From positions 1-27,076 of the forward strand of contig CAZGHV010000001.1 in the NCBI GenBank assembly GCA_964525705.1: a DNA stretch of 27,076 bases. The letters run 5' to 3'. The notes under the pieces are model-generated. The model searched no databases and had not been told where the DNA came from. It saw only the letters and a list, made by a program, of their open reading frames with translations. This document shows, in pieces, positions 357 through 27,042 of this stretch (its first letter is position 1; every line of letters begins with the position of its first letter). The translations under genes were made by a program, and so were the position numbers. This DNA comes from an uncultured Candidatus Saccharibacteria bacterium. GTDB taxonomy: Bacteria; Patescibacteriota; Dojkabacteria; J137; JAEUSD01.

Positions 357-1027
357 GCTGTGCCAGGTTTCCCTATTTCATAAATGAATCCGGGGATCCT
401 CTCTGTCAGAAGTCCGCTGGGTGATAATTCAATAATGTTTAGGTGATAATCGGTGTCGGGCCAAATTAACTTTCCTCCCGGTTTCACTTGCCGTAGGAGG
501 TGTTGTGGTGGAGAGACAAGCGCGTAAGAGATTATTATTGCGTCAAACGGTGCTTTATCTTCCAGACCAAATTGACCGTCACGCAGTAAGAATTCTGTCT
601 TGCCTGCTATAGAGGGATAGTGCTGCAGCCCTTCTCTGGCATGTCTCCAAATCCAATTGATACGTTCCATGGAGAACACTTTTCCGGTATCGCCAGCTAC
701 TTGGGATAAGATTGTGGCCAGGTAGCCACTCCCTGTTCCCAGGTGTAGATATTTCCCTCCATATTTAGGTGCTAGTAGTTGTAAATACTGTGCAACTGTT
801 GTCGGGCTGGACATTTTTTCACCATAACCAAGAGGTATTTGGCTGTCATTATATGCATCATTCTTATGTGTTGCGGGCACAAAATGAATGCGGTCTACTG
901 CTCGAAAGGCATTTAAAAGCAAGGGATCATAAATCACACTTTGCCCTAGCCTGGCTACCAGATGATGATGATCCCAAGTAAATGGCTTGGCACTGCCATA
1001 GGAAGATATATGTGGTGGATTTGACAT
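353..1027 (-). CDS. pcm: Protein-L-isoaspartate O-methyltransferase family protein (divergent), 224 aa
   Basis: AFRAVDRIHFVP...AYNDSQIPLGYG..MSSP, GTGSGY, ER, DG..G...APFDAII, QVKPGGKLIWP follow the PIMT motif order. Start moved from 1339 to ATG 1027: TATAAT lies 6 nt upstream, and the longer version would overlap the divergent giant gene. Confidence 0.85.
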   Translation of the reverse strand: MSNPPHISSYGSAKPFTWDHHHLVARLGQSVIYDPLLLNAFRAVDRIHFVPATHKNDAYNDSQIPLGYGEKMSSPTTVAQYLQLLAPKYGGKYLHLGTGSGYLATILSQVAGDTGKVFSMERINWIWRHAREGLQHYPSIAGKTEFLLRDGQFGLEDKAPFDAIIISYALVSPPQHLLRQVKPGGKLIWPDTDYHLNIIELSPSGLLTERIPGFIYEIGKPGTA

Positions 1028-1112: not shown

Positions 1113-4100
1113 TTGAGATTGCGACTTACTTTACGACCGGCAACTTTAAAGAAAACTTTTCTCACTCTGGGTGGTGTACTCCTAGTTTTGATCTTTGCAT
1201 CTGCAGCTTGGCAAACTGCAGACGGCTCAAATATATTGGTGAATTCTGTGCAGGAAGGCTTGTCCATGATCTTGGGGGCAGATAGTGCAGATAAAATATC
1301 CAGAGCCGAGGGAATGAGGTACAGCTTGCTGAGTGACAACTATACTCGATGTCAAGGTAAATTGGGAATTGAACCAGCTGGCGGTAATACCCCAGATGTG
1401 TGGTTACAGAAAAGTGCAAATGATCTCCAAGCTTATCACCAAGCTGGATTACGTTATATTTTAGTTACTGTGCCCAATTTTCAGCAAAGCACAGTGGATA
1501 ATTCGATCAAATTGTTGGTGAAGGCGTACCGTTATCACCTAGTGCCAGTATTTGTTCTGGCGGGTTTTGACAATGGTGTGTTTGGACCAGCAGAATTGGA
1601 AAATCCCACAAACATAGTTGCTTTCTATAATGCAATTAGTACTGGAGCTGGGAATGTACAATTTGTGGCAAGCACTGCACCTAGATATATGGCGGATCAA
1701 GGGAGACTTTTGGAGATGGTAACAGTATCTGTACAGGTCGCAGAAGAGCTAAATAAAGCAATTAATCCTAGCTCTGCAGGGGGTGTGAGTGATTATGATG
1801 CAAACGTGGTTATTGCTACTCCTCCGATTCGTTGGTGGCCGTCAAACATAGGCGAAATCGATTCTTTGACTGCTACAGGATTGACAATGGATGAATTTGA
1901 TATTTTGATGTTGATCGGCCAGAACACTGGCGTGAGAACTTATGAGCAAGCCTACCAGACATATCAATCTGGCAGCTCTGGGTCTCTTATTCGCCAGTTT
2001 AACAGCCAAGAAAGGCTGTTTGCTCGCACAATGTTTGTGGGTTTTGGACCTGCACCAGGCACGCTCACAGGTAAACCACAAACTATTCCATACCCAGAGA
2101 AGGACACATTGTTAAGAATGCGCCTGGAGTATGGATATATCGCCGATGACCCACAGGTGGAAGGTGTGATTCTGAGTGAGCCATTGTTTGGTTCACTATC
2201 AATGGACACTGTTCGCATGATCCATGCCGTAGGAAATAATTGTCCATATGACATCCTTGACTATGATATTCATGAGTACGAAGAAAGGTCTGTGGCTTCT
2301 AGTTGCGCAATATCGCGTTCTTCTATAGACGTCGATCCAGATCGAGATACTGCGATTGCACGCATCGTCTGCGATGCTGATCCAGAGATGCCTACATGTG
2401 AAGGACAATTACTTTGGTCCAGGCAAATAGGTTTGCCTGTGAGGAACTTCTGCTCAAACTCTCCTTCTGGCACAGATGTGAGTATGTATGAGCCTGTGGC
2501 TTCCTACTATGCAGAGCAAACAGATTTCTGGGACCCAGCAACTGGGATATACCCAGATAGTATGGGTTTGTTTGCTGGACGGTTGGTGAGTGCAGATGGT
2601 GGCAAATACACAATTCCTTGCCTGGGCAGCGCAATTAACAATTCGGGAGAGGTGGCAAAGGCTCTATTTTATGGAGCTGTGAGTAGGTGGGCATTGAATT
2701 TAAATCTCCATCCTGCTTCTGCGCGTTGGGTGGTAGCTCAAAAGTGGAATATTGAGGTGGGCACCGGGAATAGTCTGTTTGCCTGGGTGCCTGCAGGTGA
2801 AGAAGAAGTAACAGGGGAGCGTCAACAGGAGCCAGATAGTGCGGTGGTCGCTACCAGGCAAGGCTTCAGGATTGATAATATCCGTGTACTCATAGATGCC
2901 TTTGGGCAATATGATCCAGATTCTCTTAAAGGATACGACTGGGAACAAGGTGTCTGTGGTGGTGCCACCCAAATAAACTCGCGAAATATTATTTATGGTT
3001 CGGAGGAAGCATTGCCTGTGGACATGCAAAAGGAATTCTGGAGGAATACAAAAAATCAAACCTGTTATCATGCTTGGGTTAAAGGAGATTTAGTAAAGGA
3101 GTTTGATGAAGACCCCGTTTTGAGAGCTCAAGCTCTGGCTGCCGGCAGAAATCCTCGCATAAACTGTAGAATGAATGAAAAATACTGGGCGAAGCCAGAT
3201 GAAAATGGTAATGGTGTTGAGCCGGTGGCAGATGGATTGCCTTGTTACTGTGAGGGGACTATGAATCTTGCCTCCGAGTGGGCAATAAGGAACGGAATGT
3301 GTACTTTATCAGATATTCAGATAGATTATGGTTGTATTACCTACATAGGAGGAGCGCATGCCTCGGAGGCAGATGTAGCGGCCGGTATCTCAAATTATGG
3401 TGCTTCTGTTGTGTTTCTGGAAAACTCTCGTCCAGAGGCAGGGATTGAGGAGTTTGACATTGAGGGAGCTTATGATGCCATTGCGGGACTTTACAAGACA
3501 GTACAAGATAAAATGGCAGAAAGGAATCTGCGGCTCATTTTTAACGAGAAGCTTAACTGGCGTGGGGAAGTGATGGTGCGGGCCTATGCAAAACCATATC
3601 TCACATTTTTTGAGGATAAACCATATAAGCCCTATACTCCGAGAACAAACCGTGCCCGGTCTCTCTCTTTGGCGATGCAGGGTGTGGGGGTAGCTGGGAC
3701 AATTTTGGGGGAGCAGACTTCTGTGGAGGAACAGTTGCGCAATGCAGCTTCTGTCTTGGGTAGTGCTAGTGCTGTTTGTAAAATAGGCGTAAATTTTGCA
3801 TCCACGTACTCTGGAGTAGGACAGGACAAGATAAACGAGGCCGGCGAGATAGGCTACTCCTATGGACAGATAATTGTACTTGGACCTGGTGATAGTGCAG
3901 CTGGAGTCGGAGCTACCATGTCCACTATGTGTAATGCAGGCATTGTCCCTGTAGTCAGGTCTTGCGTTATAGGTACTTGTGGATTTACTAGTGGTGCAGA
4001 CCAGGCTGCTTTTTTGAGCTCTATTCCGATTCCAGATGCTTGTGGTGAAGTGTACATGACTTGTGGACATAATGAGCCCAATACAGAGTATCCCGATTTT

Positions 4101-6881
4101 TTTGCAGAAGGACAATGGGCAAGGGAGTGTGCTACCCAGATCGATCGTAAAGGTGGGAAAGTAAAAGTAACCACTCCGATTTGGAACTCTACTTATGATA
4201 ACTTTCTGAAAGACATGCCACCGTTCTTTGACGGGTTTGGCGCTTGGGATCCTAGCCTATTTGAGTGTGTGGCGTTTAACACATATGACAACGTGGGCGG
4301 TCGTACGGCAGATACATTTTACGATCGAGTGTTTTCCTTGAGTCAGTTCTCGGGTATGGAAGCTTGCATTATGGAAACCGGAGTTTATCAAGGTGAGAAC
4401 ACTACGGCAAGTATTCGGGAATTACTGTGGAGGCTCACGGCAAAATCAAATCTATTGTTTCTACTTGGATTTAACTGGACGAATACAAATCCAGACTGGC
4501 AACATTTTGCTTTACCAGACCTGGGTGTAGAGGTTGTGGGTGAGTATTGTGACGGTCGGATATTGCCTGGAGGTCCAAGTAATGGAGGCAAAATACCATT
4601 TGAAACATACCCGCAATATGCAGCGGGGTTCTACCAAGCCGAGGGTGATCATTCGCAACTTTATTACCATTATTATGAGTATTTGGGAGTAATAGATGAA
4701 CTTACTAGAGCATTATCATTGCTTACAGATAGTCAGCTACCTGCTGGCGGATACGATGACAGCGGTGACCCTGTATCCGACCTAGCTGAGCAGTTTGCTG
4801 GCTGGACAGTTTGTGGGACAAAAGAACACCGTGAAGCGGAAGCTGCGGCAGGAGATGCAGTTAATTGCATCGGTACTTTAGTGGATGAGGATCCCTTGGG
4901 AAGCTTTCTTTGTGGAAAGGGCTATCCTGTGTATCACACTTGTGCTCCAGAGAATTATCAAGATGAGCCAAAGTGTGAGGTTGTGCCTCCGCAAAGTAAG
5001 TTGTCAAGCTTGCATTCTTTACAGCAATTGGATCCCGACTTGGTTTCAATGACGGAGAAGATAGAAAGGTTGATGTGTCTTAACCCAGGCGTCTTGCTGG
5101 CAATGCTTGAGCGCGAGATCACTGCTCGACTTCCAGAACTCACAGGCGATCCTTTCCAGCAGGTTTATGCACGTAAAGATGCGAGTCAGGAAGTGTGGGG
5201 ACCGGCACAGATACACAATATTTCTTGGATAGGCGGTGGGTATGGAGTAATAGGTAGTGATGAATTTGAAGGTGTGAAGAATCGTTTTGCAACTGGAATT
5301 TGTCTTCGCCAAATGGGTATCCCCTATGCAGAACCTATACCTGGTTGGTATCAAGATGGCATGGTGTCTAGTGGCATTTTGGAGAGGTCATATGTGGGAT
5401 ACGCTTTGTGTGGTGCAGCGGCTATACTCAAAGATAACTCTGGTACAGGCGAGAAATGTGCTAGCTGGACAAAAGAGGAAATATATAAAGCGGCAGAAAG
5501 ATATTTGGGTGCTTGTAGTCAAAATGGTAGAGAATACTGCTCTGTTTATGTGGAAACTATATGTAATCTATACCCAGAAGCAAATGCAGAAATGTGCTCT
5601 CAGCTGGGTGATATTGATGATGAGTGTCTAGAGCGCATTGATGATCCAAACGAGATTTGTGCAGATGGGCAAATCCGCTTGCTCCACCCATTACGCAATG
5701 CCGATGCTGCAGTTACTCAGCCCTATGGAGGTGACTATAATCACTCTGGAGTAGACTATCGTGCTGGTGTAGGTACCCCGGTATTTGCAGCAGCTGCCGG
5801 TATTGTCACCAATGTGGAAAGTGGATGGAGTCCAGGAACTACTACAATATCTGCAAGTGCCGGGAACTTTGTGAAGATTGAGCACAATTCTGGAGCAAGA
5901 ACCTTCTGGACAAACTATCAGCACTTAAGTAGTGTGGAAGTGCGAGTGGGGGACACTGTTCGTGTGGGTCAACTCATAGGTTACAGCGGCAATACAGGTA
6001 GAAGCAGCGGTCCACACTTGCACTTTGAACTGCGACTTGTGGACTGCTATGATGGCTACAATGAGACTGAATATGAGTTCGGCTCCTGCAGCGCAGATCC
6101 TGTACCCTTCATTTTATCTGAGGAAGAAATAGCCGCTTGTGCAGATACTTCAAAATCTCCTCCGATTGCAGCTGGTGATGAAGTTTGCCCACTGGAGGAT
6201 GTTTCCGGAGCGATTATTATCCAAACATCCACGGATAAGGGTGGATCTCATGAACGTGATGATGTTTCCCCACAGAAAGCAACAGACATTCAGGCACCAG
6301 GGCATATAGTTGTTGCACCTGTGGCAGGTACTGTCCGGGTTGTAAACCCGGTTGAAACCGTGGCGCAGTTCGGTGATGGTATATGTGATTACATAAGATT
6401 GCCCGATCACAATCCAAGTAACGACTTGGAGATAAATTGGAAAGTAATAGAGGCCCAAGGTATGGTAGAAACTCCTTCCGGCTCTGGGATATTTAGGGGT
6501 GGTTTATACAAGTATGAGTCGTTTATAGATGATGAGGGGGATTATTATTATGATGGAGGCTTTGTGGTATTAATCACAGATAAAGCAGGCAGACTGTGGA
6601 GGCTGGTGCATCTTGAACCTTTGGAAGGCAAAAGTGAGCTAGAGGTAAAGACTGGAGACACTGTGGAACCAGGTGATAGGATCGGGAGGATTTATGATGG
6701 TACGCTGGCAGGTACCTGGGCAGATTGGAGCGTAAAGCCTAGTGATGGATCTGGCTGTTTCAACGTATCGGCGGAACATATGCATTTTGCAATCATCAGT
6801 GCCAATGCTGTGGATGACCCTATTTATACTGGTAATAATATAGATTCAACCTCTTGGGTGCGGGAGCACTGTGGTCTGTAA
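1113..6881 (+). CDS. Giant (1922 aa) N-terminally anchored, Cys-rich multidomain glycan/peptidoglycan hydrolase: degenerate GH-A barrel, unknown region, GH-A barrel, SLT/lysozyme-like domain, two M23 peptidases
   Basis: Basic N-terminus plus TM helix (TFLTLGGVLLVLIFASAAW). HNEP (E988) and IMETG (E1088) form a clan GH-A catalytic pair. LNPGVLLAMLERE...WGPAQI...AAERYLG...YVETI is an SLT-like pattern. HSGVD...HLHF is M23 no. 1; H-x11-D...HL...HMHF is M23 no. 2. Start is uncertain (TTG 1113, or out-of-frame ATG 1102). Confidence 0.85.
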   Translation: MRLRLTLRPATLKKTFLTLGGVLLVLIFASAAWQTADGSNILVNSVQEGLSMILGADSADKISRAEGMRYSLLSDNYTRCQGKLGIEPAGGNTPDVWLQKSANDLQAYHQAGLRYILVTVPNFQQSTVDNSIKLLVKAYRYHLVPVFVLAGFDNGVFGPAELENPTNIVAFYNAISTGAGNVQFVASTAPRYMADQGRLLEMVTVSVQVAEELNKAINPSSAGGVSDYDANVVIATPPIRWWPSNIGEIDSLTATGLTMDEFDILMLIGQNTGVRTYEQAYQTYQSGSSGSLIRQFNSQERLFARTMFVGFGPAPGTLTGKPQTIPYPEKDTLLRMRLEYGYIADDPQVEGVILSEPLFGSLSMDTVRMIHAVGNNCPYDILDYDIHEYEERSVASSCAISRSSIDVDPDRDTAIARIVCDADPEMPTCEGQLLWSRQIGLPVRNFCSNSPSGTDVSMYEPVASYYAEQTDFWDPATGIYPDSMGLFAGRLVSADGGKYTIPCLGSAINNSGEVAKALFYGAVSRWALNLNLHPASARWVVAQKWNIEVGTGNSLFAWVPAGEEEVTGERQQEPDSAVVATRQGFRIDNIRVLIDAFGQYDPDSLKGYDWEQGVCGGATQINSRNIIYGSEEALPVDMQKEFWRNTKNQTCYHAWVKGDLVKEFDEDPVLRAQALAAGRNPRINCRMNEKYWAKPDENGNGVEPVADGLPCYCEGTMNLASEWAIRNGMCTLSDIQIDYGCITYIGGAHASEADVAAGISNYGASVVFLENSRPEAGIEEFDIEGAYDAIAGLYKTVQDKMAERNLRLIFNEKLNWRGEVMVRAYAKPYLTFFEDKPYKPYTPRTNRARSLSLAMQGVGVAGTILGEQTSVEEQLRNAASVLGSASAVCKIGVNFASTYSGVGQDKINEAGEIGYSYGQIIVLGPGDSAAGVGATMSTMCNAGIVPVVRSCVIGTCGFTSGADQAAFLSSIPIPDACGEVYMTCGHNEPNTEYPDFFAEGQWARECATQIDRKGGKVKVTTPIWNSTYDNFLKDMPPFFDGFGAWDPSLFECVAFNTYDNVGGRTADTFYDRVFSLSQFSGMEACIMETGVYQGENTTASIRELLWRLTAKSNLLFLLGFNWTNTNPDWQHFALPDLGVEVVGEYCDGRILPGGPSNGGKIPFETYPQYAAGFYQAEGDHSQLYYHYYEYLGVIDELTRALSLLTDSQLPAGGYDDSGDPVSDLAEQFAGWTVCGTKEHREAEAAAGDAVNCIGTLVDEDPLGSFLCGKGYPVYHTCAPENYQDEPKCEVVPPQSKLSSLHSLQQLDPDLVSMTEKIERLMCLNPGVLLAMLEREITARLPELTGDPFQQVYARKDASQEVWGPAQIHNISWIGGGYGVIGSDEFEGVKNRFATGICLRQMGIPYAEPIPGWYQDGMVSSGILERSYVGYALCGAAAILKDNSGTGEKCASWTKEEIYKAAERYLGACSQNGREYCSVYVETICNLYPEANAEMCSQLGDIDDECLERIDDPNEICADGQIRLLHPLRNADAAVTQPYGGDYNHSGVDYRAGVGTPVFAAAAGIVTNVESGWSPGTTTISASAGNFVKIEHNSGARTFWTNYQHLSSVEVRVGDTVRVGQLIGYSGNTGRSSGPHLHFELRLVDCYDGYNETEYEFGSCSADPVPFILSEEEIAACADTSKSPPIAAGDEVCPLEDVSGAIIIQTSTDKGGSHERDDVSPQKATDIQAPGHIVVAPVAGTVRVVNPVETVAQFGDGICDYIRLPDHNPSNDLEINWKVIEAQGMVETPSGSGIFRGGLYKYESFIDDEGDYYYDGGFVVLITDKAGRLWRLVHLEPLEGKSELEVKTGDTVEPGDRIGRIYDGTLAGTWADWSVKPSDGSGCFNVSAEHMHFAIISANAVDDPIYTGNNIDSTSWVREHCGL

Positions 6882-7605: not shown

Positions 7606-7659
7606 GGATAAATGCATTCATATTTGGTCCCCCTGTTGGTTGTCTCTACTCATTGTGCC

Positions 7660-7668
7660 TGTTAAAAT
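7660..7668 (+). promoter_or_regulatory. Extended -10 promoter for proS
   Basis: TGtTAAAAT, 10 nt upstream of ATG 7679. Confidence 0.5.
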
Positions 7669-7678
7669 CGGCAGTTAT

Positions 7679-9124
7679 ATGCAAAAAGAAGATAAAAAAG
7701 CACTCCCACCACGTTCTGTAGACCAGTCTGAATGGTATACGCAAGTAATTATGCGTGCGAAACTTGCAGATTACTCTCCAGTGAGAGGCTGCATGGTAAT
7801 TCGCCCCTATGGATACGCTATTTGGGAACGAATACAAGAAGTAATGAATAAAAAAATAAAGGCTATGGGTGTGAATAATGCCTATTTCCCACTTTTTATC
7901 CCCTACTCTTTTTTACAAAGGGAACAAGACCATGTAGAAGGGTTTGCCCCAGAGGTGGCATTGCTTACTCGTGTGGGAGACAAAGAGCTTGAGGAGCCTT
8001 TGGTAGTACGTCCAACATCGGAAACTATAATCTATGAGATGTTTAAAGACTGGGTGCAATCATATCGTGATTTGCCACTAAAGATAAATCAATGGTGTAA
8101 TGTTGTTCGCTGGGAAAAACGCACAACTCCTTTTTTGCGTACCACAGAGTTTTTATGGCAAGAGGGACACACCGCACATGTAAGCAGGGATGAAGCAGAG
8201 AAAATGGTGGCAGAGGCATTGGAGATGTACTCTACATTTGCTTCCGAATACCTGGCTATTTACTCTATCCCCGGTCGCAAAACAGAGGCTGAGAAATTTG
8301 CGGGTGCAGAGTATACTACCACATTTGAGTGTATGATGAGAGACCGCAAGGCTTTGCAGAGTGGCACTTCTCATCTTTTGGGGCAAAATTTTGCGCGGGC
8401 ATTTGGATTGGAGTTTGTGGGAGAAGATCACCAAATGCATTACGCCTGGACTACTAGCTGGGGGCTCAGTACTAGGATAATCGGCGCAATTATTCTCACG
8501 CATGGTGATGACAAAGGGTTGATACTTCCTCCCCAGATTGCACCAGTCCAGGTGGTAATCGTTCCTATTTTTAAGAATGAGAACAAATCAGAAGTATTCG
8601 ACTATTGTGAAAAAGTGCAGGCACAGCTGGAAAATCTTAATATACGATCTGAATTTGATACCAGCGATAATTCACCTGGTTGGAAATTTGCTGAGGGAGA
8701 AATGCGTGGAATCCCATTGCGAGTGGAAGTAGGCAGTAAAGACATTGCAGCTCAAGTACTGACAGTGGTGAAGAGAAACGATGGCCATAAACGGCAAGTG
8801 CCATTGACCGAGATTTCGGAAGTGATCCCAGAGTTGCTAGAGCTAATACAGGCTGAAATGTTACAGAGCGCAAAAGAGTTTACACAGCAGAATACTAGGC
8901 GGGTAGATAGCTATGATGAATTTAAGCAGTTGGTTAATTCTACTGATGAACCCCTGGGGTTTATTGAGGCTTTTTTCTCTGGAGAGAAAGTGCTGGAAGC
9001 CCAGATAAAAGAAGAGACAAAATACACTACCAGATGTGTGCCGTTTGCAACTGAAACTGAAAGTGGTAGCTGCTTCATGAGTGGGAAGCCAGGGAAGCTG
9101 ACAATTTTTGGGAAAGCTTACTAA
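7679..9124 (+). CDS. proS: Proline--tRNA ligase, eukaryote/archaea (Thermus)-type, no INS editing domain, 481 aa
   Basis: WYTQVI..A.LADYSPVRGCMVIRPYG, RPTSET, QWCNVVRWE, FLRTTEFLWQEGHT, LQSGTSHLLGQNFARAF, TSWGLSTR, C-terminal GKAY. Start set at ATG 7679. Confidence 0.97.
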   Translation: MQKEDKKALPPRSVDQSEWYTQVIMRAKLADYSPVRGCMVIRPYGYAIWERIQEVMNKKIKAMGVNNAYFPLFIPYSFLQREQDHVEGFAPEVALLTRVGDKELEEPLVVRPTSETIIYEMFKDWVQSYRDLPLKINQWCNVVRWEKRTTPFLRTTEFLWQEGHTAHVSRDEAEKMVAEALEMYSTFASEYLAIYSIPGRKTEAEKFAGAEYTTTFECMMRDRKALQSGTSHLLGQNFARAFGLEFVGEDHQMHYAWTTSWGLSTRIIGAIILTHGDDKGLILPPQIAPVQVVIVPIFKNENKSEVFDYCEKVQAQLENLNIRSEFDTSDNSPGWKFAEGEMRGIPLRVEVGSKDIAAQVLTVVKRNDGHKRQVPLTEISEVIPELLELIQAEMLQSAKEFTQQNTRRVDSYDEFKQLVNSTDEPLGFIEAFFSGEKVLEAQIKEETKYTTRCVPFATETESGSCFMSGKPGKLTIFGKAY

Positions 9125-13938: not shown

Positions 13939-15843
13939 TTACTTGCATATTGCAGCTGTTTTAGCCTCGCAAGCTGTAATTAGGTCATTTCCCGCCATAG
14001 ACATTGATTCAGTCCGCAGCCCGCAGCTAAAAGAAACAAGCGCTTTGTGCAAGATGCTTTCATCTGCAAAAACTTGCAAATTTAATATATTACCAAATGG
14101 GGGAACCCCGCCTATCTGCAGACCGTAATGTTGTTGTATTTTTTCTGGCTGCTCCATCGCTAGCTTCTCACCAGCAAGCTCCTCAACAGATTTAATATTC
14201 AGTTTGTTGCTGCCAGGTAGAATGGCGATCACGTTCTTCCCAGTCTTTTTGCCTACAAGTATTAACGATTTCACTATTGACTCTGGACTTTCTCCACTCA
14301 CCCGCATTGCATCTTTGACCGCAGAAGCTTCCTCATGCTGCATATGGGTGAAATCAATATCCCTGCTTTTAAGTAACTGGATGATTGCATTGCGCATGTC
14401 TTCACCGTTCTTAATTTGGGGAAGAGTTACTTTGATACCTAGCTCTTCCAATTGCTCATTTGTAACTGCTGCCGGAGCTTCCATCACTGCTACTTTCCCG
14501 CTACCGGTCATAGGGAAGGCAATGGCCTCTTTGAGGGAGGATTCACCGGCGAGCAGCATAACTAGCCTGTCCAGCCCGAGGGCAATGCCGCCATGGGGGG
14601 GAGTCCCGGTTGCAAACGCTTCTAGCATATGGCCGATACTCTCTTGAATTTCTGTTTCGGAGTAACCCATTATGGTTAGTGTTTGTTTCAGGATTTCTGG
14701 GCGATGAGCTCGAATACTGCCTCCACCTACCTCAAACCCGTTACATACAAGATCGTACTGTGTTGTGAGTATTTGCTCAACGTTTTCTCCAGCCATGTGC
14801 TGCTCTAGGTGCTGCTGCTTTGGCATGCTGAAGGGATTGTGTGTAAATGTCCAGCCACTTTTACTATCACGTACTTCTGCTGTATCCTTCTTGTCTACTC
14901 TTTTGAAGAATGGGAAATCTATTACCCATGCAAATGCTAGCAATCCAGCTTCCTTCTCTTCTGGGGTACGTAAGTCAAATTTATCTGCACCATACTTGCT
15001 CACGGCTTCTGCATAGGTAATTACAGGGAAGTCGGAATCACGCATTTTGCCGCCTACTGCTGTAACTGCAGATTTCACAACTTGCTCAACAAGAGAGCGA
15101 ATCTCTACCTCATCTGAGAAGCTCATCTCCAAGTCCAGCTGAGTGAACTCAAACCCACGATCTGCACGCAAATCTTCATCCCGAATACAACGAGCTACTT
15201 GGAAGTAGCGATTGATGCCGGCTGTCATCAGCAGTTGTTTATATTGTTGGGGGCTTTGAGGGAGAGCATAGAATTTTCCAGGATTAAACCTTGAAGGTAC
15301 AATAAAATCTCGCGCACCTTCTTTTGTTGATTTTGTGAGCATTGGTGTTTCGATCTCCACGAAATCCTTTGCATACAAGTTGTTCCTCAAATGGCGAATG
15401 AATTCAGAGCGCATACGCATGATGGTATTCATTCTCGGGCGTCGCAAATCCAAGTAACGGTACTTAAGGCGTGTTTCTTCATTTATGTCGTGCCCGTCCC
15501 CTTTTACAGGCAGGGGTAAGTTTGTGGCTGGGTTTAGTACTATAAAATCGCTGGACGAATCCAAGACTAGCTCGAGATTCCCTGTAGCTATCTCCGAATT
15601 AACATTTTCTGGGGCACGTTCTTGCAAGACGCCACTCACTTCCACAACTGATTCTAATGGTGTTCGTTTCATCTCTGGGATACCGCTCCCCACACATTGG
15701 ATTAGTCCAGTATGATCTCGGATATCAAGAAATGTGAGCTGACCGTGGTCTCTTCTGGAGTCTATCCAGCCCTTAATTTGAATACGGCTCCCTCGCTCTT
15801 CTTTCAATAAATCTGCTACCAAAACTCTAGTATTGTGGTTCAT
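13939..15843 (-). CDS. aspS: Aspartate--tRNA ligase (bacterial type, GAD domain absent) fused to a C-terminal YbaK/ProXp-family domain, 634 aa
   Basis: GWIDSRRDHGQLTFLDIRD, RLKYRYLDLRR, EIETPMLTKST.EGARDF, ALPQSPQQYKQLLM, FQVARCIRDEDLRADR..EFTQLDLEMSF, HNPFS, GGGSIR, PPHGGIALGLDR. The last ~150 aa carry IVKSLIL and GGVPPFG. Start at ATG 15843. Confidence 0.97.
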   Translation of the reverse strand: MNHNTRVLVADLLKEERGSRIQIKGWIDSRRDHGQLTFLDIRDHTGLIQCVGSGIPEMKRTPLESVVEVSGVLQERAPENVNSEIATGNLELVLDSSSDFIVLNPATNLPLPVKGDGHDINEETRLKYRYLDLRRPRMNTIMRMRSEFIRHLRNNLYAKDFVEIETPMLTKSTKEGARDFIVPSRFNPGKFYALPQSPQQYKQLLMTAGINRYFQVARCIRDEDLRADRGFEFTQLDLEMSFSDEVEIRSLVEQVVKSAVTAVGGKMRDSDFPVITYAEAVSKYGADKFDLRTPEEKEAGLLAFAWVIDFPFFKRVDKKDTAEVRDSKSGWTFTHNPFSMPKQQHLEQHMAGENVEQILTTQYDLVCNGFEVGGGSIRAHRPEILKQTLTIMGYSETEIQESIGHMLEAFATGTPPHGGIALGLDRLVMLLAGESSLKEAIAFPMTGSGKVAVMEAPAAVTNEQLEELGIKVTLPQIKNGEDMRNAIIQLLKSRDIDFTHMQHEEASAVKDAMRVSGESPESIVKSLILVGKKTGKNVIAILPGSNKLNIKSVEELAGEKLAMEQPEKIQQHYGLQIGGVPPFGNILNLQVFADESILHKALVSFSCGLRTESMSMAGNDLITACEAKTAAICK

Positions 15844-15869: not shown

Positions 15870-16050
15870 CTACATAAAAAGCGACCCACGAGTAATCTAT
15901 ACCCAAGGGTCGCTTTGCGACGGTACCACCTTAATTCCGGTATTAACCGGCTCTTAGCTTTTATATAGTTCTTTTAGTCACTTAGCTTTATGGTCTTTCA
16001 GTTTCACCATTTGCTGTCTTGCGAATTTTACTCAATTACTAAGTTTAGGT
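15870..16050 (-). ncRNA. T-box riboswitch (tRNA-sensing leader) upstream of aspS
   Basis: Antiterminator AAGG-UGGUACC-GUCGC-AAA-GCGAC-CCUU (15905-15932), with a mutually exclusive terminator and a stem III hairpin CCGG-UUAAUA-CCGG (15937-15950). An AGACAGC...CUGAAA hairpin (15990-16020) resembles distal stem I. Candidate Asp specifier GAC at 15977-15979. The 5' boundary is uncertain. Confidence 0.85.
15876..15916 (-). terminator. Intrinsic terminator of the T-box leader
   Basis: AAAGCGACCC-(19 nt, partly paired)-GGGUCGCUUU followed by further Us. It shares GCGACCC with the antiterminator. Confidence 0.85.
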
Positions 16051-16092
16051 CAAATCTCTTTGGAATCGACCTGGAGCCTCTTCATTCGCCAT
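16045..16092 (-). CDS. Possible 15-aa small ORF (MANEEAPGRFQRDLT) at the 5' end of the aspS leader
   Basis: AGGAG-atattt-ATG, the clearest SD-like site I found in the window's 5' regions. It may instead be part of T-box stem I. Confidence 0.25.
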   Translation of the reverse strand: MANEEAPGRFQRDLT

Positions 16093-16122: not shown

Positions 16123-16680
16123 GTGAATTATGTAAAATCTCTGGGTAAATTGCTCCACTTTCGCCAGTCAGATCCCTGGTGGTATGTGCTGGGTGTATTC
16201 ATTCTTATTGTTTGCTTGGCAGTTATACCCTGGTCTCCGCTAGCTATGTTACCGGTTGGTGATGGTGACTATGCTGTGATACGTGTTATAGATGGTGATA
16301 CTATTGAAGTGATGGATAACGCTGGTGCTGAGCTGAAAGTACGGTTGATTGGAATTGATACTCCAGAATTGGCACAGGCTGGGAAAGCCGCTGAGTGCTT
16401 TGCGGACGAGGCAAAAAGCCAAATTACTTTGCTGTTATATGGTCAGATAGTAGAATTGCGCTCTGATCCTACACAGGCGGACAGAGATAGATATGACCGG
16501 TTGTTGCGTTATGTAATTTCGAAAGATGGGTCAAATGTAAACTTGGAAATGATCAGGGAAGGTTTTGCTTATGAATTTACCTACGACGAACCATATCTTT
16601 ATCAAACAGAGTTTAAACTAGCTGCCCAAAGTGCTCAGGCGCTCAATCTGGGCTTGTGGCGTGAGTGTATAGCTAAATAG
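16123..16680 (+). CDS. Membrane-anchored thermonuclease (SNase-like), 185 aa
   Basis: TM helix, then VIRVIDGDTIEV, VRLIGIDTPE, CFADEAK, DRYDRLLRYV, VNLEMIREGFA, A..AQ...GLW. Confidence 0.93.
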   Translation: MNYVKSLGKLLHFRQSDPWWYVLGVFILIVCLAVIPWSPLAMLPVGDGDYAVIRVIDGDTIEVMDNAGAELKVRLIGIDTPELAQAGKAAECFADEAKSQITLLLYGQIVELRSDPTQADRDRYDRLLRYVISKDGSNVNLEMIREGFAYEFTYDEPYLYQTEFKLAAQSAQALNLGLWRECIAK

Positions 16681-26926: not shown

Positions 26927-26941
26927 AACTATAGAAATCGT

Positions 26942-27025
26942 TGCCGGGAGGGAGGGTCGAACTCCCACGGCCGTGAAGCCACATGCTCCTAAGGCATGCG
27001 TGTATACCAATTTCACCACCCCGGC
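26942..27025 (-). tRNA. tRNA-Leu (anticodon TAG), CCA not encoded
   Basis: Acceptor GCCGGGG/UCCCGGC plus A73; D-loop GGUA; anticodon arm CAUGC-CUUAGGA-GCAUG; long variable arm; T arm GGGAG-UUCGACC-CUCCC. Followed by ACG rather than CCA. Confidence 0.96.
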
Positions 27026-27042
27026 ATTATGAGGTTGACTGG

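Follow-up and report, generated by a model that had tools for sequence, protein, structure and literature searches.

A reduced T-box leader predicted to attenuate transcription of aspS in a candidate phyla radiation bacterium

T-boxes are a model system for RNA-RNA recognition of tRNA. Here we report on a leader on the minus strand of contig CAZGHV010000001.1 (assembly GCA_964525705.1, filed as an uncultured Candidatus Saccharibacteria bacterium and placed by GTDB within the Dojkabacteria), of which the whole 27,076-nt stretch analysed is called the window. The leader lies in a 273-nt intergenic gap between a staphylococcal-nuclease-like gene and aspS, shares the orientation of aspS and is separated from it by 33 nt (Table 1). 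The aspS product is an aspartyl-tRNA synthetase (AspRS) of 634 residues with a bacterial-type class II core that lacks the GAD insertion (NCBIfam aspartate--tRNA ligase match, 573 bits) and a C-terminal YbaK/tRNA_edit domain at residues about 488-633. We think it probable that the leader is a transcription-attenuating T-box riboswitch controlling aspS, most likely in a predicted short-leader form.

The 3' half of the leader carries the UGGNACC element as a seven-nucleotide bulge between helices A1 and A2 of an antiterminator, followed by an intrinsic terminator (AAAGCGACCC...GGGUCGCUUU, with an inner 6-bp helix). Because the 5' arm of the terminator reuses the 3' strands of A2 and A1 (overlap 15916-15905), the two folds are mutually exclusive, and the terminator is the more stable of the two. 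This is the usual asymmetry of T-boxes, in which the ligand must rescue the weaker fold. Stem III is flanked by AAGAG on its 5' side, an instance of RRRxG, and by AA on its 3' side; this purine motif of the discriminator domain is credited to Li et al. 2019 in the review PMC7583486.

At the gathering threshold Rfam reports no T-box in the window. In permissive mode RF00230 aligns positions 15967-15905 to model positions 147-216 with 29.7 bits against a curated gathering score of 93 (E = 8e-5 in a 551-nt search, 0.004 over the whole window), and the match covers stem III and the antiterminator only. This match, the exclusive folds and the RRRxG-stem III-AA arrangement identify the 3' half as a standard T-box discriminator of class I (transcriptional); that it resembles a T-box merely by chance is less likely. 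An initial annotation made from the letters alone had already picked out the antiterminator/terminator pair and stem III, and the Rfam comparison that it proposed shows that the element does not score as an ordinary T-box.

Table 1. Features of the aspS leader and its flanking genes in the window
Feature	Coordinates	Strand	Remarks
Staphylococcal-nuclease-like gene	16123-16680	plus	other flank of the gap
Promoter-like -35 hexamer TTGACC	16053-16048	minus	17-nt spacing to -10
Possible P0 5' strand ACUUAGU	16044-16038	minus	in promoter spacer; pairs with GCUAAGU at 15986-15980
Promoter-like -10 hexamer TAAAAT	16030-16025	minus	predicted start near 16018-16020
T-box leader	about 16019-15876	minus	directly 5' of aspS
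AGCAA pentamer	16015-16011	minus	candidate AG-bulge counterpart (AGxRA T-loop); identical in L161, abuts hairpin 5' side in both
Hairpin P1, AUGGU / 11-nt loop GAAACUGAAAG / ACCAU	16010-15990	minus	candidate distal loop of stem I
UGAAA in P1 loop	16000-15996	minus	candidate UGxRA T-loop; UGUAA in L161
A-rich linker AAAGCUAAGU	15989-15980	minus	P1 to GAC; also 3' strand of possible P0
Specifier codon GAC (Asp)	15979-15977	minus	matches downstream AspRS; AAGUGAC kept in L161
A-rich linker UAAAAGAACUAUAUAAAAGCUAAGAG, unstructured	15976-15951	minus	26 nt, GAC to stem III; no helix predicted
RRRxG motif AAGAG	15955-15951	minus	AAGAG-CCGGUUAAUACCGG-AA spans 15955-15935
Stem III CCGG-UUAAUA-CCGG, then AA	15950-15937	minus	placed on model stem III by Rfam alignment
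Antiterminator (discriminator)	15932-15905	minus	A1, T-box bulge and A2; -8.2 kcal/mol
Helix A1 AAGG/CCUU	15932-15929 and 15908-15905	minus	antiterminator
T-box bulge UGGUACC	15928-15922	minus	between A1 and A2; 7 nt
Helix A2 GUCGC-AAA-GCGAC	15921-15909	minus	antiterminator
Intrinsic terminator	15916-15878, U-run to 15876	minus	-23.9 kcal/mol
aspS, AspRS with C-terminal YbaK-like aminoacyl-tRNA editing domain	13939-15843	minus	Pfam and NCBIfam

The 5' half, in which tRNA identity would be read, has no Rfam match at E up to 10, in line with the non-canonical stem I described in the initial annotation. The GAC codon proposed there as specifier agrees with the downstream gene and is conserved, within AAGUGAC, in the closest related leader, L161. 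As also described, GAA does not precede the codon; AAGU stands there, and the base after the codon is U, not a purine. Around the codon we found no UGAUGA...GA arrangement of a K-turn (GA motif), which the related leaders L023, L093 and L061 possess, and no specifier-loop S-turn, as the two AGUA sequences (16040-16037 and 16032-16029) face no GAA beside the codon. Nor is a helix predicted to close around GAC in the window, and L161 offers only AAAA/UUUU. Placement of GAC in an ultrashort terminal loop was rejected for the window, where the closing helix is missing.

Between codon and stem III, the 26-nt linker contains no foldable stem II, S-turn hairpin or CCGU-type F-box, so that the reported absence of stem II and of the IIA/B pseudoknot holds, and a short single strand leads to stem III as in glyQS-type T-boxes. 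The duplication of AAAGCUAAG was likewise found as described, at 15989-15981 within AAAGCUAAGU and at 15961-15953 within UAAAAGAACUAUAUAAAAGCUAAGAG. The second copy can pair, as CUAAG/CUUGG, with the 3' strand of A1 (15903-15908); this pairing appears in the minimum-free-energy (MFE) fold of the short leader, where it encloses stem III and A2, is not conserved in L161, and might replace A1 or arise transiently during folding.

L161 lies on a Dojkabacteria contig that encodes a 64%-identical AspRS. The two synthetases are mutual closest relatives by reciprocal BLAST, mnmA lies nearby in both, and both leaders present the same order of elements: promoter-like motif, AGCAA-P1, A-rich linker, AAGUGAC, stem III and discriminator. 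Hairpin P1 forms with a pair probability of 0.86-0.99 across all contexts tested. In L161 its stem reads GUGGG/CUCAC, with two double changes and one G-C to G-U change relative to the window, while its loop, GAAACUGUAAG, differs from the window loop only at the x of UGxRA. The linker to the codon measures 11 nt in L161 (AAAACAAAAGU) and 10 nt in the window, and stem III of L161, CUGUGA-GUUU-UCACAG, occupies the same place.

Downstream of the codon the two leaders differ. L161 has a 10-bp hairpin, UAGCCUGUUA/UAGCAGGUUA, which the window lacks; the 3' strand of this hairpin, AAUAGCAGG, corresponds to the relatives' F-box tail GAUAGCAGG, of which the window retains only AGCUAAGAG. We read this hairpin as a putative collapsed closing helix of a former stem II domain. 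The GUGACAACAA of L161 carries UGACAAC, as do the stem I loops of L001 and L003, and all precede a stem II domain helix. Because this matches the core of the relatives' stem I loop at the same position, we take GAC to be the ancestral specifier and P1 to be an addition specific to the small clade of the window and L161. The intergenic region of L161 is 840 nt long and contains a weak, below-threshold match to the lysM-TM7 RNA motif (715-852, minus strand, 22.8 bits, E = 0.11), and about 245 nt (1150-1395, plus strand) that separate the T-box terminator from the start of aspS are unexplained.

In canonical stem I, the platform that receives the tRNA elbow consists of two interlocked pentanucleotide T-loops, AGAGA and UGxRA (PMC7583486). 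The Rfam consensus lays these out as AGAGA, 6 bp and an 11-nt loop ending in UGaaA; the window has AGCAA, 5 bp and an 11-nt loop with UGAAA, and in L163, a canonical T-box of Clostridial origin, the order is AGCGA, 6 bp and the 11-nt loop GAUGGUGUGAG, with UGUGA at the same loop positions. A full-length alignment of L161 to RF00230 (17 bits, E = 0.24) places AGCAA on the AG bulge (AGAGA) and P1 on the distal hairpin. By a rough, post-hoc estimate, an AGNRA abutting a helix together with UGNRA in an 11-nt loop would co-occur by chance with a probability of about 4e-4. Because pentamers, helix and loop layout fit the distal end of canonical stem I, we propose AGCAA and P1 as a predicted double T-loop platform for the tRNA elbow. 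A candidate platform kept while stem II is lost would be a coherent combination, namely the glyQS domain set.

The initial annotation had read AGACAGC as the variant AG bulge. These letters are present (16019-16013), and as a bulge AGCAA fits instead; AGACAGC as the bulge and an alternative CAG/CUG helix around AAAUGGUGAAA were rejected, since L161 cannot form this helix and P1 covaries. P1 as a displaced stem II S-turn hairpin was rejected because its AGUA partner is missing, and the idea that the P1 loop pairs with the tRNA D-arm or stem III was dropped as unsupported. The bare P1 loop motif was also rejected as a diagnostic: pattern scans for the P1/GUGAC/T-box signature returned nothing beyond chance matches and two canonical Clostridial T-boxes, whose stem II loop reads GAAACUGGAAGUA. 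Covariance modelling of the P1 module was abandoned, the two-sequence MAFFT alignment having put its single gap inside the P1 stem. The suggestion of a new structural class is thus supported in part: AGCAA-P1 fits the known platform and retains a portion of canonical stem I, and the unusual portion is the proximal one, with no K-turn, S-turn or purine after the codon and possibly no 5' strand.

The annotation had also taken the genome to be of the candidate phyla radiation (CPR) and thought a T-box there unexpected. All of the roughly 280 AspRS relatives that we retrieved (120 listed proteins plus 80 loci each from GTDB genomes and from metagenomes) belong to Patescibacteria, with a Candidatus Dojkabacteria protein closest among them at 64% identity; relatives titled 'Pseudomonadales' or 'Gammaproteobacteria' are co-assembly bins among CPR sequences, which we treat as mislabelled. 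Judged by these sequences, the host is a CPR bacterium. No AspRS closer than 64-68% identity was found in a GTDB genome scan, a metagenome scan and a search of 5.8 billion proteins.

In this group T-boxes are not peculiar to one genome. Across 160 CPR loci whose aspS has 250 nt or more of sequence upstream, a UGGNACC core occurs in 25 distinct leaders, or about 23 once two coding-sequence false positives are removed, and the T-box-bearing loci span Microgenomates, Dojkabacteria and Paceibacteria-type lineages. A terminator-like hairpin with a U-run follows the core in 17 of the about 23. The roughly 24 leaders scored with Rfam all fall at 17-50 bits, none reaching the gathering score. The ten loci on the contigs with the next-closest synthetases comprise four without a T-box (L177-L180), five ultrashort-type leaders (L181/L182, which are two copies of one leader, and L183-L186) and L161, the only one of the window type.

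Three forms were recognised among the relatives. In the Dojkabacteria/Microgenomates type (L001, L003, L013, L014, L181, L183-L186, L121), a hairpin of 4-8 bp presents the codon in its terminal loop with the consensus (C/U)U-GAC-A(A/C), and pairing is kept across at least 13 different stem sequences. On its 3' side follow an optional S-turn stem II, the conserved pseudoknot element CGGGUAAGCCCGUNAYAGC, an optional stem III and the discriminator; S-turn stem II and F-box pseudoknot in this form were seen in about 15 CPR relatives and are absent in the window. The Paceibacteria type (L061, L117, L127, L136; also L041) has a K-turn-like base, a 4-5 bp stem and a CUGACA loop, then a 16-25 nt linker, stem III and discriminator, with the hairpin about 120 nt upstream of a UGGCACC core; it has neither elbow platform nor stem II domain, a combination that the literature treats as insufficient for tRNA binding. 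Two leaders folded as possible long-stem intermediates (L010 and L022) gave no clean structure.

As a third form, some relatives carry AAC (Asn) in place of GAC as specifier (L181, about 1027-1043; L183, L023 and L093), in the loops CUAACAA and AAAACA. These specifiers would be expected if the synthetases concerned also charge tRNA(Asn), and they suggest that, in lineages with a presumably non-discriminating AspRS, aspS responds to the charging of tRNA(Asn). UGGU and UGGC bulges each occur with GAC and with AAC specifiers, a mix that fits G73 tRNAs read by C or by a wobble U. A discriminator-base check on tRNA genes in 32 related loci was uninformative, yielding a single tRNA(Asn), with U73, at a locus without a T-box. 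This tRNA(Asn)(GUU) gene (L180, 3894-3968, in a Dojkabacteria-type genome) has a U discriminator, does not encode CCA, and is flanked by an AspRS-YbaK gene that has no T-box and by a second class II synthetase gene of D/K/N type.

Two signals bear on where the window RNA begins, and they conflict. The promoter-like sequence TTGACC-17-TAAAAT agrees with the consensus at 10 of 12 positions, as does TTGCAA-17-TATAAT of L161 at the same offset from P1 (12-14 nt from the -10 hexamer to P1 in both leaders). When the 70 nt upstream of P1 were shuffled 20,000 times, such a motif arose in 0.8% of shuffles for the window and 2.0% for L161, and in none (0/20,000) did both appear at matching offsets. Transcription usually starts 7 nt from the -10 hexamer, which would place the start at about 16018 in the window and about 930 in L161, 1-5 nt before AGCAA. 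The spacer of the window motif, however, contains ACUUAGU, which can pair with the linker upstream of the codon as a further helix, P0. For RNAs starting at 16075 or 16062, P0 together with P1 is the unconstrained MFE fold of the window, with a P0 pair probability of about 0.4. L161 offers ACUAUUGU/ACAAAAGU in its place, at an offset from P1 of 35 nt against 34 nt in the window, with three positions altered on both strands and pairing kept, that is, with compensatory changes; the joint chance of this in 20,000 shuffles is 0.00175. A long two-stranded stem I would thus have one certain helix, P1, and one that covaries (p about 0.002) with its 5' strand inside a conserved promoter-like motif. 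The two signals can be reconciled by a pair of transcript isoforms; failing that, one of them is fortuitous.

The P0 evidence can be taken to mean that the same T-box has a longer leader with a remodelled two-stranded stem I, in which P0 ends on GAC and AGCAA-P1 is distal. Transcription would then start upstream, for example from TTTACA-17-TATCAT at 16136-16108, weaker promoter-like sites of this kind lying further upstream in both sequences, and the promoter resemblance of what would be a 22-nt 5' bulge would be fortuitous. Such a leader would supply the 5' strand that a true AG 'bulge' requires, and a possible lower helix in L161, AAUUG/CAAUU (noted by inspection), would put the codon in a canonical-like internal loop. 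Yet the promoter-like motif overlapping P0 is far less easily explained by chance (0/20,000) than P0 itself (35/20,000), the pair probabilities of P0 and the lower helix in L161 are at most 0.03, and no conserved structure is seen in the 22-nt bulge. By our estimate from the Rfam consensus, the stem would moreover fall about five stacking layers short of canonical stem I; the window shows neither a convincing lower helix nor a K-turn; and in other CPR aspS leaders the promoter stands immediately upstream of a short stem I. We regard the longer leader as somewhat unlikely, and a short leader starting at about 16018 as reasonably probable.

In the short-leader form, transcription would most likely start near 16018 from TTGACC-17-TAAAAT, and by default the terminator would fold and RNA polymerase would halt before aspS. 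Uncharged tRNA(Asp) would pair through its GUC anticodon with the GAC specifier and through its free NCCA end with the UGGU of the bulge (15928-15925), where a U-G wobble at the discriminator position (73) is probable. The purines around stem III (AAGAG...AA) would support the tRNA-bulge helix, and the weaker antiterminator, held in this way, would allow read-through into aspS; charged tRNA would be unable to stabilise it. AGCAA and P1 would probably add an elbow contact. Stem I would in this form be reduced to its distal end, with the codon 10 nt downstream of the platform in an A-rich stretch. The most specific version of this proposal is tentative, and we doubt it more than we trust it: an RNA from about 16018 that begins with a 5'-terminal double T-loop platform, tethered by a single-stranded, purine-rich 'ruler' of 10-11 nt to an unstructured specifier, and that has no K-turn, S-turn, stem II or pseudoknot. 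If true, this would be a new T-box architecture and the smallest tRNA-identity module able to drive transcriptional antitermination.

Several observations weigh against a short leader with such a platform. A start from the proximal promoter would leave the bulge T-loop at the extreme 5' terminus of the RNA and the codon on no helix, an arrangement without precedent, while the covarying P0 argues for a longer RNA. Position 4 of the bulge pentamer is A where canonical AGAGA has G, UGxRA is separated from the helix by one nucleotide more than the Rfam consensus has, and the 5' half has no significant Rfam score. The U on the 3' side of the codon is the equivalent of an A-to-U change that abolished tRNA binding in glyQS (PMC7583486). 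The AGCAA-P1 architecture is known from two sequences only, further members having been found neither in three pattern scans of 185,579 genomes nor in the metagenome scan and the 5.8-billion-protein search, so the covariation check called for in the initial annotation, positive for the P1 stem, amounts to one comparison between two members and is thin evidence. Lastly, Paceibacteria-type leaders appear to manage without platform or stem II, and P1 therefore need not be a platform.

P1 also lends itself to a different use. Its loop contains AAC (G-A-AAC-U...), and this triplet might be the specifier instead of GAC or in addition to it, P1 being an ultrashort stem I as in L023 and L093, where a K-turn is followed by UGGUG-AAAACA-CACCA. 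The leader would then sense tRNA(Asn), alone or with tRNA(Asp) through GAC, which would suit a non-discriminating AspRS. In both the window and L161, AAC occupies loop positions 3-5 of P1, as the codon does in the hexaloops AAAACA (L023, L093) and CUGACA; AGCAAAUGGUGAAAC of the window resembles AGCGAUGAUGGUGAAAAC of L023; and related AspRS-YbaK leaders use AAC (L181, L183) or GAC (L184-L186), the AAC specifiers implying that tRNA(Asn)-responsive aspS T-boxes exist in the clade. The P1 loop, however, is 11 nt long and conserved throughout rather than at the codon alone, and its AAC is preceded by A and followed by U, whereas most relatives follow a U-codon-A rule. AAC stands 50 nt (window) and about 85 nt (L161) from stem III, whereas GAC in the window stands about 25 nt from it, much as the codon does in minimal Paceibacteria-type leaders, and it is GAC, not AAC, that is homologous to the relatives' stem I loop (UGACAAC). 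We consider an AAC specifier improbable; a single leader might also read two tRNAs, with tRNA(Asp) sensed by GAC and tRNA(Asn) by the AAC of the P1 loop, for a non-discriminating AspRS.

The loss of nearly all anticodon-side features (K-turn, S-turn, purine after the codon, stem II and F-box), with the codon in no predicted local structure, could also mark a decaying T-box that is blind to tRNA identity and acts as a constitutive attenuator or responds to another factor, P1 serving as a stabiliser or protein-binding site. Against such decay, UGGUACC, RRRxG-stem III-AA and GAC are intact and are conserved in L161 despite heavy divergence elsewhere, and conservation in P1 is higher in the loop than in the stem, a pattern not required of a simple stabiliser hairpin. 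Because essential aspS lies behind a strong terminator of -23.9 kcal/mol, antitermination presumably works, and we judge decay very improbable.

Viewed as a tRNA-sensing leader, the element is closest in domain set to the glyQS type (Bacillus, Geobacillus, Oceanobacillus; class I, transcriptional and naturally without stem II), which combines a stem I platform, for which the window has a candidate, with stem III and discriminator and has no IIA/B pseudoknot either. Both have an intrinsic terminator/antiterminator, a UGGN bulge and RRRxG-stem III-AA, and the candidate double T-loop has the same dimensions (pentamer, 5-6 bp, 11-nt loop). Unlike the glyQS type, the window lacks the K-turn and loop E (AGUA/GAA) and has U in place of the stacking purine after the codon; the proximal part of its stem I is missing or else consists of one 7-bp helix with a 22-nt bulge, its codon is GAC (two G-C pairs) and not GGC, and it scores 29.7 bits in Rfam against 93.

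Actinobacterial ileS T-boxes, which are class II, translational and have an ultrashort stem I (Sherwood et al. 2015, as summarised in PMC7583486), share with the window a drastically shortened stem I. Most of the CPR relatives (L001, L003, L013, L181, L183-L186) follow their logic, with a terminal-loop codon, S-turn stem II and F-box pseudoknot, and in CPR aspS leaders the ultrashort stem I, known so far from translational ileS T-boxes, is coupled to terminators. The window, in contrast, lacks the stem II and pseudoknot that the literature calls essential with a truncated stem I, keeps a candidate elbow platform that ultrashort forms do without, and has its codon outside a closed terminal loop. 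It ends in a terminator and not in a Shine-Dalgarno sequestrator, the U-run hairpin finishing 33 nt before the ATG.

With the other CPR aspS leaders the window has in common the gene, the phylum-level group, the GAC specifier, the discriminator, the terminator and a score below the gathering threshold, whereas the AGCAA-P1 module occurs only in the window and L161. In the Dojkabacteria type the F-box pseudoknot persists whether or not stem II is present, and the window has lost it; the Paceibacteria type shares the absence of stem II, but has no platform and mounts CUGACA on a 4-5 bp hairpin with a K-turn base. By its predicted mechanism and its discriminator half the window element is a T-box; it fails several canonical features of stem I as well as the Rfam threshold. 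Two members of its subtype are known, within a wider and apparently undescribed set of reduced T-boxes in CPR genomes.

In the open-access literature searched we found no paper joining T-boxes with the candidate phyla radiation, Patescibacteria or Saccharibacteria. The T-box database was compiled from RF00230 matches, with a class II model run on Actinobacteria (PMC7778990). Because it is built on RF00230, CPR leaders of 17-50 bits would escape it, and since all of the roughly 24 scored leaders are sub-threshold, riboswitch censuses of CPR genomes probably under-count T-boxes. According to reviews, transcriptional T-boxes need a long stem I with a platform, and a truncated stem I needs compensation by stem II (PMC7583486). 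CPR aspS leaders challenge both requirements; if functional, they would define far smaller ones and would be useful for studies of mechanism and for engineering compact tRNA sensors. They would also mean that feedback from tRNA charging on an essential synthetase is retained in very small symbiont genomes.

The three-domain AspRS architecture is common to more than 100 CPR proteins, mostly of Dojkabacteria/WS6, and a literature search returned no paper evidently on an AspRS-YbaK fusion, as far as titles and abstracts tell. The window also encodes a prolyl-tRNA synthetase (ProRS; 7640-9124, plus strand) of archaeal/eukaryal type, with a ProRS-C_1 domain and without the INS editing domain; the AspRS fusion may provide the editing on which ProRS usually relies. 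A 1922-residue open reading frame (1113-6881, plus strand) has an M23 peptidase domain near residue 1600 as its sole recognised domain and is likely a giant surface or cell-wall-active protein, of a kind common in CPR genomes. The only other Rfam/ARAGORN match in the window is a tRNA-Leu gene with anticodon UAG at its edge (26940-27026, minus strand).

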